The translations under genes and the position numbers were made by a program. Source: Sphingomonadaceae bacterium (GTDB lineage Bacteria; Pseudomonadota; Alphaproteobacteria; Sphingomonadales; Sphingomonadaceae). Taken from it: a stretch of 64,000 nt of DNA. The stretch spans positions 10,674 through 74,673 of the forward strand of contig PKED01000047.1 in the NCBI GenBank assembly GCA_002863155.1. Reading direction: 5' to 3'. Below the pieces are notes generated by a model. The model was not told the origin of the DNA. It made no database searches and worked only from the letters and a program-made list of their open reading frames with translations. This document shows, piece by piece, positions 58,388 to 60,347 of this stretch; within the stretch, counting starts at the first letter, position 1, and each line of letters begins with the position of its first letter.

Positions 58388-59530
58388 ATGAACCCCGTCT
58401 ATTCCCGGCTCGGCACCACCATTTTCGAAGCGATGTCGGCGCGGGCGCGGGCGACCGGCGCGGTCAATCTGGGCCAGGGCTTCCCCGACGGCAAAGGTCC
58501 ACCGGACGTGCTGCAGGAAGCGGCGCGCGCGCTGCTGGGCAATTCGAACCAGTATCCGCCGATGGCGGGGCTGCCGGTGCTGCGGCAGGCCGTCGCGGAC
58601 CATTATGCCGCGCATCAGGGGCTCGACCTCGACGCCGCCGAAGTGATCGTAACGTCGGGCGCGACCGAGGCGCTGGCGGCGGCGATCCTCGCGCTGGTCT
58701 CGCCGGGCGACGAAGTGATCCTGTTCCAGCCGATGTACGACGCTTACCTGCCGCTGGTCGAGCGGGCAGGAGGCGTCGCGCGCTTCGTCCGGCTCGAGCC
58801 GCCCGAATGGCGGATCACGCGCGAGGCGCTCGAACGCGCCGCATCGCCGCGCACGAAGCTGATCCTGTTCAATGACCCGCTCAACCCGACCGCGACGATG
58901 GCGAGCGTCGAGGAGCGTCGCCTGCTCGCCGACTTCTGCGTCGAGCGCGACCTGATCGCAATCTGCGATGAAGTGTGGGAGCATGTCGTGTTCGACGGTC
59001 GCACCCATGCCTCGCTGATGGCCGAACCCGGCATGCGCGAGCGGGCAGTCAAGATCGGGTCGGCGGGCAAGATCTTCTCGCTGACCGGCTGGAAAGTGGG
59101 CTGGCTCTGCGCTGCGCCTGCATTGTCCGGGGTGATCGCCAAGGCGCACCAGTTCCTGACCTTCACCACACCGCCCAATCTTCAGGCCGCGGCCGCTTAT
59201 GGGCTGGGCAAGGACATGGGGTATTTCGCGACTATGCGCGCAGGCTTCCAGCGCTCGCGCGATCGGCTGGCGGCGGGGCTGACCGGGCTGGGCTATACCG
59301 TGCTGCCGAGTGCGGGGACGTACTTCCTGTCAATCGACCTCGCCGCCAGCGGCATTGCGATGGCCGACGTCGCCTTTTGTGAGTGGCTGGTCGAGCAACG
59401 CGGCGTCGCAGCGATCCCGGTCAGCGCCTTCTACGCGCAGGACGCCGTGACCAACGTCGTGCGGCTGTGCTTCGCGAAAGTCGACGACACCATCGACGCG
59501 GCGCTGGAGCGGATGGCGCGGCGGGGTTAG
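58388..59530 (+). CDS. PLP-dependent class I/II aminotransferase (YbdL/MtnE-like)
   Basis: AVNLGQGFPD, NQYPPM, VTSGATEAL, NDPLNPT, DEVWE, SAGKIFSLTGWKVGW; near mtnABCD. Confidence 0.88.
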   Translation: MNPVYSRLGTTIFEAMSARARATGAVNLGQGFPDGKGPPDVLQEAARALLGNSNQYPPMAGLPVLRQAVADHYAAHQGLDLDAAEVIVTSGATEALAAAILALVSPGDEVILFQPMYDAYLPLVERAGGVARFVRLEPPEWRITREALERAASPRTKLILFNDPLNPTATMASVEERRLLADFCVERDLIAICDEVWEHVVFDGRTHASLMAEPGMRERAVKIGSAGKIFSLTGWKVGWLCAAPALSGVIAKAHQFLTFTTPPNLQAAAAYGLGKDMGYFATMRAGFQRSRDRLAAGLTGLGYTVLPSAGTYFLSIDLAASGIAMADVAFCEWLVEQRGVAAIPVSAFYAQDAVTNVVRLCFAKVDDTIDAALERMARRG

Positions 59531-59943
59531 GCGTCGGGCGAACGACTGCGCGCTTTTCGGATTTTCCCCTCCCTGGAAGGGAGGGGCCGGGGGTGGGTTG
59601 GCCCGAGGATGTCGGCGACGTTCGCCAATATGGCTTCGGCGACGCCTTCAGGGTTCTCCGACACTTGTGCGTTCCAGAATCGGATCACCCGCCAGCCACA
59701 GCTTTCGAGAAATGAGGTGCGCTCAGCGTCGTACGTCAAATCGAGATGGTGGCTCCCGTCGAATTCGACAGCCAACTTCGCGTTTCGGCAGGCCACATCG
59801 AGGATGTAGTTTCCGACAACCAGTTGCCGCGTAAATCGGGGGCGATGATTAGCGATCAGCCGCCAGATCGTGCGCTCAGCGTCGGTTGCGTTGTTGCGCA
59901 GTTCGCGGGCGCGCTGGGTCATCAGGGGCGGAACGCGGGGCAT
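59527..59943 (-). CDS. DUF559 / Vsr-like PD-(D/E)xK endonuclease
   Basis: ARELRNNATDAE, FTRQ, YILD, AVEFDGSHH, DAERTSFLESCGWRVIRFWN; the C-terminal THPRPLPSREG is encoded by a repeat. Confidence 0.9.
   Translation of the reverse strand: MPRVPPLMTQRARELRNNATDAERTIWRLIANHRPRFTRQLVVGNYILDVACRNAKLAVEFDGSHHLDLTYDAERTSFLESCGWRVIRFWNAQVSENPEGVAEAILANVADILGPTHPRPLPSREGKIRKARSRSPDA
59566..59600. repeat. 35-bp hairpin repeat, downstream arm flanking the DUF559 gene
   Basis: CCCCTCCC-TGGAA-GGGAGGGG plus a CCGGGGGTGGGTTG tail; inverted copy of 59976-60010 (33/35 identical). Confidence 0.92.
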
Positions 59944-59975
59944 TGCGAAATTCTGGCGGCGGTGCCTGCCGAGCG

Positions 59976-60010
59976 CAACCCACCCCCGACCCCTCCCTTC
60001 CTGGGAGGGG
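59976..60010. repeat. 35-bp hairpin repeat, upstream arm flanking the DUF559 gene
   Basis: CAACCCACCCCCGA-CCCCTCCC-TTCCT-GGGAGGGG. Confidence 0.92.
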
Positions 60011-60122
60011 AGCGTTCGGGCTTGGGCTGGCCGAACGATTGGCGTCGTTACTTCGGGAGGTTGCTTCACGAATCCCGCATTTTGATGATATTGCGCAGCT
60101 TGAAACAATCTAGGATGATACG

Positions 60123-60347
60123 ATGAATGATCTCGTCGACGCATTAAGCAAAGCCTGCGCGGCCGCAGCTAAAGGTGACAGGGTTGTTACAGTTCATCTT
60201 TTCGGCATCGAGCATGCTGCCCGTCTCAAGAACGTCAATTTATCGGACCTCGCTGGGCGCGCGGGTATCAGTGAGAAGTACGGGACGGAGTTGCGTAAGG
60301 CTGTTCGTTTGGCGGAGTATGTTAAGATTGTAGCCAAGCCGCACTAA
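60123..60347 (+). CDS. Small AT-rich hypothetical protein, possibly HTH-like (74 aa)
   Basis: Intact ORF with AGGA upstream; codon usage unlike neighbours; amphipathic helices (VHLFGIEHA...GISEKYGTELRKAVRLAEYV). Confidence 0.6.
   Translation: MNDLVDALSKACAAAAKGDRVVTVHLFGIEHAARLKNVNLSDLAGRAGISEKYGTELRKAVRLAEYVKIVAKPH

Follow-up and report, generated by a model that had tools for sequence, protein, structure and literature searches.

In REP/REPIN-RAYT systems (repetitive extragenic palindromic sequences and their REP-associated tyrosine transposases), reportedly described by Nunvar in 2010, by Bertels and Rainey in 2011, and by Ton-Hoang in 2012, a chromosomal gene present in single copy lies between two oppositely oriented copies of a short, structured repeat, which is dispersed as singlets and inverted doublets, is co-inherited with the gene, varies widely in number between related genomes, and is rare on plasmids. 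The locus described here has the same features. It lies in a 64,000-nucleotide stretch of contig PKED01000047.1 from a Sphingomonadaceae bacterium (the whole stretch is hereafter the window), and it consists of a small gene for a DUF559 protein bracketed by two inverted copies of a G-rich hairpin repeat. It differs from RAYT loci in that the enzyme is predicted to be a hydrolytic PD-(D/E)XK nuclease rather than an HUH/Y1 transposase, in that the repeat carries a putative third, mirror-symmetric strand, in that several repeat-rich genomes lack an exactly cognate gene, and in that any action of the nuclease on its repeat is a prediction.

The repeat class and the protein family are both known, and we found no account of their pairing, or of repeats flanking DUF559 genes, in the searchable literature on either. 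DUF559 proteins form a very large family whose only annotation is “endonuclease domain-containing protein.” The repeat, judged by its sequence, is a G/C-rich intrastrand-triplex motif (TM) of the BoxC/TMECO class. Such repeats have been catalogued for about thirty years, with earlier accounts of BoxC and PIT motifs reportedly given by Bergler in 1992 and by Hoyne et al. in 2000, and we know of no answer to the questions of where they come from, which protein partners them, and what they do. The Escherichia coli version, TMECO, has the consensus CCCTCGCCCCTCTGGGGAGAGGGTTAGGGTGAGGGG, folds as a triplex by nuclear magnetic resonance (NMR), and often occurs in inverted pairs (Holder et al. 2015, PMC4666352). 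The same study states that mobility functions were never found near the motif, reports no partner gene, and describes neither the stem sequence of our repeat nor Sphingomonas (PMC4666352). The Sphingomonas motif resembles TMECO in its arm-loop-arm build with a mirroring G-rich strand after 1-3 nucleotides (nt), in its high conservation, and in its many, mostly intergenic copies, frequently in close inverted pairs at loci that are unusually variable between relatives. In contrast to TMECO, it systematically frames a nuclease gene, and its triplex is a prediction, whereas that of the E. coli motif has been seen by NMR.

On the side of the enzyme, the closest described systems are the Vsr-like (EDxHD) homing endonucleases (I-Bth0305I, PDB 3r3p; Vsr, PDB 1cw0), with which the window protein shares a D...E-x-D-G-x-x-H core and, by prediction, the catalytic fold. 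The DUF559 unit has no intron, intein, conserved target gene, or extra DNA-binding domain, its core is about 126 amino acids (aa) long, and, unlike homing endonuclease genes, it is framed by dispersed repeats. The gene-less doublets of the repeat recall miniature inverted-repeat transposable elements (MITEs) and the Rickettsia palindromic elements: they measure 99-135 bp, have terminal inverted repeats, lie in both orientations, favor the gaps between convergent genes, and occur as in-frame protein inserts (GlyS and IleS). Unlike those elements, they have no DDE transposase partner and no target duplication, and their centers are hypervariable while their arms are nearly invariant. No recombinase, such as would accompany a programmed inversion cassette, is found among the neighbors of the window gene.

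DUF559 GENES BETWEEN INVERTED REPEATS

The window gene is framed by arms of 36 nt each, complementary at 34 of 36 positions (94%) and separated by a 375-nt spacer (coordinates in Table 1). Each arm holds a CCCCTCCC-N5-GGGAGGGG hairpin, which has exactly two matches in the window against 0.00 expected from 100 dinucleotide-preserving shuffles. As single-stranded DNA, the arms are predicted to form 8-9-bp hairpins (-10.8 to -12.8 kcal/mol), and from each a G-rich tail, GGGGGTGGG two bases after the stem, points inward. The initial annotation had put the identity of the two copies at 33 of 35 positions, with 8-bp stems and tails pointing at the gene, and this was essentially right; it was equally correct in placing one copy ahead of the ATG and the other in the translated C terminus, where repeat 1 is read in frame as ...GPTHPRPLPSREG and is followed by 12 codons of flanking DNA. 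The whole unit, which we call the TM-DUF559 cassette, is 447 bp long and lies in an intergenic gap between convergent genes. Assembled contigs from four independent metagenomes of drinking water, biofilm, and wastewater reproduce its locus with zero differences, and it is therefore no assembly artifact.

The host is a Sphingomonas with a 3.29-Mb genome of 65.6% G+C, in which the window lies on contig C2 (contigs of this genome are given below as C numbers and genomes of the genus as G numbers). We call the repeat of the window family A. A second DUF559 gene of the same genome, at C4:7826-8140, is bracketed in the same manner by a sister repeat, family B (CCCCTCCCC-TTCA-GGGGAGGGG-TT-GGGGGTGGGG); these are the two blast-detectable cassette copies of the genome, and their proteins are 40% identical. 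The other two DUF559 genes have inverted hairpins of their own, such that 4 of 4 are bracketed, each by its own repeat family. The initial annotation's tie between repeats and DUF559 genes extends well beyond this genome. Within the genus, lineage-specific inverted hairpins bracket 19 of 20 high-scoring DUF559 genes sampled outside this genome and 25 of 31 from five TM-rich genomes. Across phyla, they bracket 64 of 76 public-genome loci (84%) compared with 2 of 70 displaced controls, the 76 usable loci coming from Sphingomonadales, Azospirillum, beta-, gamma-, and zetaproteobacteria, Oscillospiraceae, Anaerolineales, and Pirellulales. When the starting point is the repeat rather than the gene, the result is the same: all 23 extracted inward-pointing family-A pairs spaced 360-400 nt apart enclose a DUF559 gene. 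In E. coli K-12, the DUF559 gene ycjD adjoins fabI, with a TMECO copy about 230 nt downstream and a degenerate copy at the ycjD stop codon.

Gene and repeat are also distributed together. Among 121 genomes of the genus, all 8 that lack DUF559 have zero TMs, and all 111 that bear TMs have DUF559 (Fisher p = 5e-11, uncorrected for phylogeny). The number of TMs rises with the number of DUF559 genes (Spearman rho 0.68 on raw counts, with genome size uncontrolled), from a median of 5 in genomes with one gene to 64 in genomes with six. Strict family-A cassettes occur in 21 of the 121 genomes, and the family-A cassette is enriched where its repeat is abundant (15 of 38 genomes with at least 20 copies, compared with 8 of the 83 below that number). 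When repeat types were mapped onto a tree of 117 DUF559 proteins, 23 changes were enough to account for them; shuffled labels took 62.9 on average, and in 200 shuffles the count never fell as low. Repeat type is thus strongly clustered on the protein tree, which it tracks imperfectly, and this co-inheritance argues that the gene and its termini have been passed on together over long times. What is new here is this genus-wide test, namely the complete co-absence, the dose relation, the co-inheritance, and the shared insertion hot spots described below.

A TRIPLEX-TYPE REPEAT

In a TM, a pyrimidine arm and a fully complementary purine arm enclose a loop, and a G-rich strand then follows as the mirror image of the purine arm. 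In family A, the arm GGGAGGGG is followed by a GGGG(G)TGGG tail that obeys the mirror rule for a third strand (G opposite G; A or T opposite A). The rule can be read across families as well. Among 131 loci there are 8 distinct types of asymmetric arm, and the tail recorded for each, either its commonest or an example, is a perfect mirror of the arm, whereas a direct reading matches n-2 positions; over all copies the margin is weaker, with the mirror better in 202, the direct reading better in 113, and a tie in 171. The same G tracts could fold instead as a G-quadruplex, an alternative that sequence does not separate from the triplex.

A PREDICTED VSR-FOLD NUCLEASE

The window gene belongs to DUF559 (Pfam PF04480, E 8.7e-33, 112.9 bits against a cutoff of 20.6, residues 76-176 of the long open reading frame [ORF]) and matches PDB 3hrl, a Neisseria DUF559 structure, by sequence (E 1.2e-14). 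Its AlphaFold model has a predicted local distance difference test score of 86.4, and the best Foldseek matches of the model in the PDB are 3hrl (template modeling score, 0.83) and 3r3p, the catalytic domain of the homing endonuclease I-Bth0305I (0.75, E 7e-5); Vsr (PDB 1cw0) is a weaker match than either. D49, E60, D62, G63, and H66 are invariant in a 30-sequence alignment and form the D...E-x-D-G-x-x-H core. Based on the model and on these residues, we predict that the window protein is a PD-(D/E)XK nuclease of the Vsr/I-Bth0305I fold. The ratio of nonsynonymous to synonymous substitution (dN/dS) is 0.06-0.21 (21 of 23 family-A cassettes, those with a clean frame), and 20 of the 23 have an intact frame. 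Purifying selection, intact frames, and invariant catalytic D/E-x-D/H residues together argue that the DUF559 protein is functional. Genomes carry from 1 to 11 DUF559 paralogues. The sole DUF559 protein with genetics, Caulobacter VsrA, is tied to cytosine methylation, DNA damage, and the SOS response (PMC12907096). We found no adjacent cytosine methyltransferase gene and no T/G-mismatch context at the window locus, a statement that covers the immediate neighbors only, as no genome-wide methyltransferase search was made.

REPEATS WITHOUT THE GENE

In keeping with the initial annotation's idea of a hairpin family, a genome-wide search shows that the repeat also occurs without the gene, as singlets and as doublets. 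The 32-nt family-A motif (at most 2 mismatches) is present in 93 of the 121 genus genomes, in 0-217 copies, and the general TM pattern is present in 111, in 0-272 copies; the reversed control gave 0 everywhere for the former and 0 in most genomes for the latter. Most TMs are gene-less singlets and inverted doublets of about 100-135 bp. The window's own genome has a family-A cassette, a family-B cassette, and 4 gene-less doublets, of which those at C9, C22, and C67 (99-105 bp) are of family B and that at C17 is family-A-like, as well as single or partial copies; only 6 TMs fit the strict pattern. The initial annotation had not recognized the hairpin and its tail as the known BoxC/TMECO motif, and the repeat is not private to the gene. 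The lengths of the 6 elements of this genome (99, 99, 105, 87, 429, and 447 bp) are all multiples of three, a regularity that fails in general: doublets of other genomes range over 98-146 bp, and cassettes fall in all residues modulo 3.

Genome G018 has many family-A doublets with a regular spacing of 90-91 nt. In an alignment of 18 of them, in both orientations, near-invariant 40-nt termini and two conserved inner arms surround a center (for example, in G018:C1:433225-433346) of about 18 nt, constant in length, hypervariable, and apparently random, which a simple copy-and-decay model does not explain. We also considered that doublets could be internal-deletion derivatives of cassettes. The identity of the G018 inner arms to subterminal cassette DNA is 0.45, compared with 0.42-0.45 for shuffles, and doublets and cassettes share only their termini of about 40 nt.

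Where do these elements insert? In the window's genome, family-B doublets of 99 bp lie in the same frame within ileS (C9:8969-9067) and glyS (C22:28695-28793) and add 33 residues, PLPFRGGVGGGA...PHPNPSPEGEG, to IleS and GlyS. The GlyS loop is an insertion hot spot: G018 has a family-A doublet there, three genomes have other palindromes, and the loop is without an insert in G019 and G005. One gap between convergent genes is another, holding a family-A cassette in 2 genomes, family-C doublets in 3, a family-B doublet in 1, and a gene for a putative GIY-YIG protein in G073. This last gene (G073:C1:1336194-1337050) is small, has GIY-YIG-like motifs by eye, and is framed by different palindromic repeats of its own; the locus would be a second arrangement of a small nuclease within repeats. 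The site downstream of a thiolase gene holds a solo repeat by itself in four genomes and the solo repeat plus an adjacent cassette in four more. At a peptidase/acyl-CoA-ligase site, we looked for a doublet and a cassette at the same position; the doublets of the relatives are of a different family, and no conversion in place can be read from them.

Three loci deserve a description of their own. In G136 (C1:3231950-3236368), the left terminus of the cassette and about 17 nt of leader recur alone 45 bp outside the cassette, and the cassette-less genomes compared with it have exactly one such solo copy; recombination between direct copies of this type would delete the gene and leave a solo repeat. 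In the window's genome, the family-B DUF559 cassette (C4:7700-8260) directly follows sufB, and the last 51 bp of sufB (VEAQKLLGISLEGSVG and the stop) are present twice, about 84% identical, one copy ending SufB before the cassette and the other serving in frame as the C terminus of DUF559 after it. This duplication could stem from an old in-frame insertion that was later uncoupled or from a long duplication at insertion. In G047 (C1:2402800-2408800), two DUF559 genes lie about 4.5 kb apart with purA between them, one overlapping the start of aroC by 4 nt and the other overlapping the 5' end of a HisZ-like (tRNA-synt_His) gene. The positions of the two genes are conserved, and the same spacing is found in G114, G007, G102, G126, G085, and G074; in the three genomes examined (G047, G114, and G007), inverted repeats flank the gene beside aroC and are absent around its HisZ-side neighbor.

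CONSERVATION AND MOVEMENT OF THE CASSETTE

The 23 extracted family-A cassettes are 442-453 bp long. Their terminal 40 nt are 0.81-0.95 identical in pairwise comparison, with differences mostly in the loop and linker, and the termini are retained in the other Sphingomonadales genera sampled; pairwise identity of the interiors is 0.43-0.74, and the proteins match that of the window at 52-72% of residues. Even within one genome, G018, the interiors of the two family-A cassettes differ along their whole length. From species to species, the genes on either side of related cassettes are unrelated, and common flanks are found only within three groups of close species, in which cassettes occupy the same site. 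Cassettes have presumably moved, then, on an evolutionary scale, as this pattern of flanks suggests.

Such movement is a different matter from the active, minimal mobile element of about 450 bp that the initial annotation had proposed, and that proposal found no support. The cassette does not look like an active mini-transposon. It is single-copy per lineage, without visible target duplication, and almost absent from plasmids and phages; close species share its site, and near-identical copies are lacking. Among 72,556 plasmid records, only 28, most of them megaplasmids, contain a DUF559 homologue, as do 2 of 50,697 phage records, which makes carriage by plasmids or phages negligible. The bases outside the family-B repeats (TTCAAG...CTTGAA) were considered as a target duplication; they are inverted rather than direct and so are part of the repeat. 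The expectation that the locus would vary among relatives proved sound, as the gap between the aminotransferase gene and mtnA is about 40 bp in G006 and holds other DNA elsewhere. It offers no precise empty site: G011, the nearest relative (85% identical in nucleotide sequence), and a metagenomic relative of about 90% identity hold about 640-680 bp of other DNA, and no boundary can be drawn. Nor did contigs from four metagenome runs contain inversion or excision variants, although contigs may hide rare forms. A RAYT was considered as the true mobilizer and, for this genome, rejected, since the Y1 transposase domain PF01797 has no match in the whole genome, whereas control genomes match. The parallel with RAYTs and their REPs drawn in the initial annotation is apt, therefore, as an analogy and not as an identity; the framed gene is DUF559.

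A POSSIBLE PARTNERSHIP AND ITS RIVALS

How might a nuclease and a triplex-type repeat be connected? The reading we prefer, which we hold tentatively and at somewhat short of an even chance, is that the folded repeat is the substrate of the nuclease that it frames, the two forming a partnership like that of REP and RAYT with an enzyme of a different kind. It draws on the bracketing of DUF559 genes across phyla, the dispersal of the repeats without the gene, the co-distribution, the stronger conservation of the termini than of the interior, the purifying selection on the protein, the clustering of repeat type on the protein tree, the lack of a RAYT in the window's genome, the varied contexts of related cassettes, and the similarity of the fold to that of a homing endonuclease. 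We infer from the sequence patterns that the nuclease may bind and cut the repeat and may have a role in spreading it. In this model, the repeat would fold in single-stranded or extruded DNA, either as the hairpin with its third strand or as the competing G-quadruplex, and the nuclease would recognize that fold and nick at or beside it; nicking, together with host repair or replication, would then create, homogenize, and occasionally relocate the gene-less singlets and inverted doublets. The gene and its two repeats would persist as a slowly moving, mostly vertical, single-copy unit. The logic would be that of REP/REPIN-RAYT, with an unrelated enzyme and a different DNA fold. A more sweeping claim, that DUF559 nucleases are the dedicated protein partners of BoxC/TM repeats in general, a second repeat-enzyme partnership, independent of RAYT, in which nicking at a folded three-stranded (or G-quadruplex) DNA end would drive repeat spread, homogenization, and occasional in-frame insertion, even into essential genes such as glyS and ileS, we regard as doubtful. 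If it were true, an orphan repeat class and an orphan protein family would explain each other, the RAYT/REP idea of a domesticated enzyme tending its own repeats would gain an independent second example with different chemistry, and the odd G/P-rich tails and inserts in annotated proteins would be explained.

Several observations weigh against such a partnership. Strand transfer is beyond a hydrolytic PD-(D/E)XK nuclease on its own, and thus any movement would need host functions. No two near-identical cassettes occur in any genome examined, and no target-site duplication was found at the ends of any cassette, doublet, or insertion examined. Four of the five examined genomes richest in family-A repeats, G047 (217 copies), G114 (132), G007 (113), and G062 (86), have no DUF559 gene flanked by exact family A. 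The repeats around their DUF559 genes share the GGGAGGGG stem and differ in loop or tail, and a strict one-to-one match of a repeat population with a cognate cassette fails in all four; this counterexample of repeat-rich genomes without an exactly cognate gene is also new. The G018 doublets are not simple deletion derivatives of cassettes. The co-absence of gene and repeat reduces to two or three, at most five, independent events: in an rpoB tree, a single clade takes in four of the five DUF559-less genomes that are complete, with G116 separate, and the other three are incomplete assemblies (by its aminotransferase gene, G005 is close to the window's genome). The co-distribution itself would fit equally if the nuclease were needed only where repeats exist. 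Finally, VsrA is linked to methylation and damage and not to repeats (PMC12907096).

Could the gene be selfish, and the repeats merely its lodging? A homing-type gene may have settled in pre-existing TM doublets, with the two repeats serving as a safe harbor and as short homology arms for copying into doublets or empty alleles, while replication slippage or another enzyme spread the repeats. We think this unlikely, even though the nearest characterized fold is the I-Bth0305I catalytic domain, the outline of a cassette is that of a doublet with a gene in its middle, the thiolase site shows a solo repeat in four genomes and a cassette next to one in four, and cassettes lie at hot spots used by other small nuclease genes, such as the GIY-YIG gene of G073. 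Genomes with 50-130 doublets hold only one or two cassettes of the same family, never identical, which implies that homing into doublets is rare or absent; the center of the doublet, where the gene would have to enter, is hypervariable and thus presents no conserved recognition site, and we found no orthologous site at which a cassette in one genome corresponds to a doublet of its family in a second. Moreover, repeat types follow the protein tree and are not mixed across it, and a homing gene leaves the repeat-free state of the gene-less genomes unexplained. Or does the host keep the nuclease for its own sake? A maintenance or Vsr-like repair enzyme might process the non-B structures or mismatches of TMs and be retained only where repeats exist, with the repeats around the gene being regulatory (mRNA ends, terminators, or a damage sensor) or simply accumulating there. 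The co-distribution and the copy-number correlation would be explained equally well if repeats select for the nuclease, and the gene is under purifying selection, single-copy per lineage, chromosomal, and syntenic among close species, with several cassettes directly upstream of housekeeping genes at conserved sites (aroC and HisZ-like). TM repeats have been tied to genomic instability in E. coli (PMC4666352), and Caulobacter VsrA is a DNA damage-linked nuclease (PMC12907096). This explanation is nonetheless improbable in our estimation: it accounts neither for the precise position between two inward-pointing copies (84% of loci, across phyla) nor for the lineage-specific repeat type and the unrelated loci of related cassettes, and 1-11 paralogues per genome would be unusual for a housekeeping repair enzyme.

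Might the inverted repeats instead be recombination sites of an invertible switch that flips the gene on or off relative to outside promoters? The cassette has no recognizable promoter of its own, and “DUF559 domain-containing protein” is enriched 14-fold among predicted targets of programmed inversion (PMC9881135). That enrichment, however, needs no explanation beyond the inverted repeats themselves, hundreds of copies of these repeats have no gene between them, no invertase or recombinase is adjacent (the neighbors are an aminotransferase gene, a small HTH_73 ORF, and mtnA), and contigs of the four metagenomes show one orientation only, with the proviso that contigs may miss rare variants. 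We consider a switch very unlikely. Least probable of all, to the point of being hardly credible, is coincidence, in which TMs accumulate in permissive intergenic gaps where small DUF559 genes also lie. The same gaps and protein loops do collect many unrelated palindromic elements, yet chance would have to produce the excess of bracketed loci over displaced controls, the enclosure of DUF559 by every one of the 23 inward-pointing family-A pairs, the clustering of repeat type on the protein tree, and the entire lack of TMs in DUF559-less genomes.

FEATURES OF THE WINDOW LOCUS

Table 1. Coordinates of the TM-DUF559 cassette and the adjacent small ORF (positions in the window)
Feature	Position	Strand	Description
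Terminal repeat 1 (family-A triplex-type motif)	59565..59600	+	Hairpin CCCCTCCC-TGGAA-GGGAGGGG (59566-59586), linker CC, tail GGGGGTGGG(T) (59589-59598)
DUF559 coding sequence, 138 aa	59527..59943	-	Start ATG 59943 inferred; stop 59527-59529; 59527-59564 is flanking DNA past repeat 1
Leader, 32 nt, repeat 2 to ATG	59944..59975	-	Poorly conserved among cassettes, pairwise identity 0.44-0.54
Terminal repeat 2 (family A), inverted copy of repeat 1, 34/36	59976..60011	-	Hairpin 59990-60010, tail at the complement of 59978-59987
74-aa ORF, HTH_73 domain	60123..60347	+	PF24718, E 4e-22

Repeat 1 lies at the 3' end of the DUF559 gene, whose stop codon overlaps that of the convergent aminotransferase gene. 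Upstream, repeat 2 is located 33-68 nt ahead of the inferred ATG, and in the leader between them we found no consensus sigma-70 promoter and no strong Shine-Dalgarno sequence. The HTH_73 ORF lies between the cassette and mtnA in a stretch that appears A+T-richer by eye, and it is missing from all relatives examined. Together with the cassette, it makes up 889 bp that are replaced by 637 other bases in the metagenomic relative of about 90% identity.

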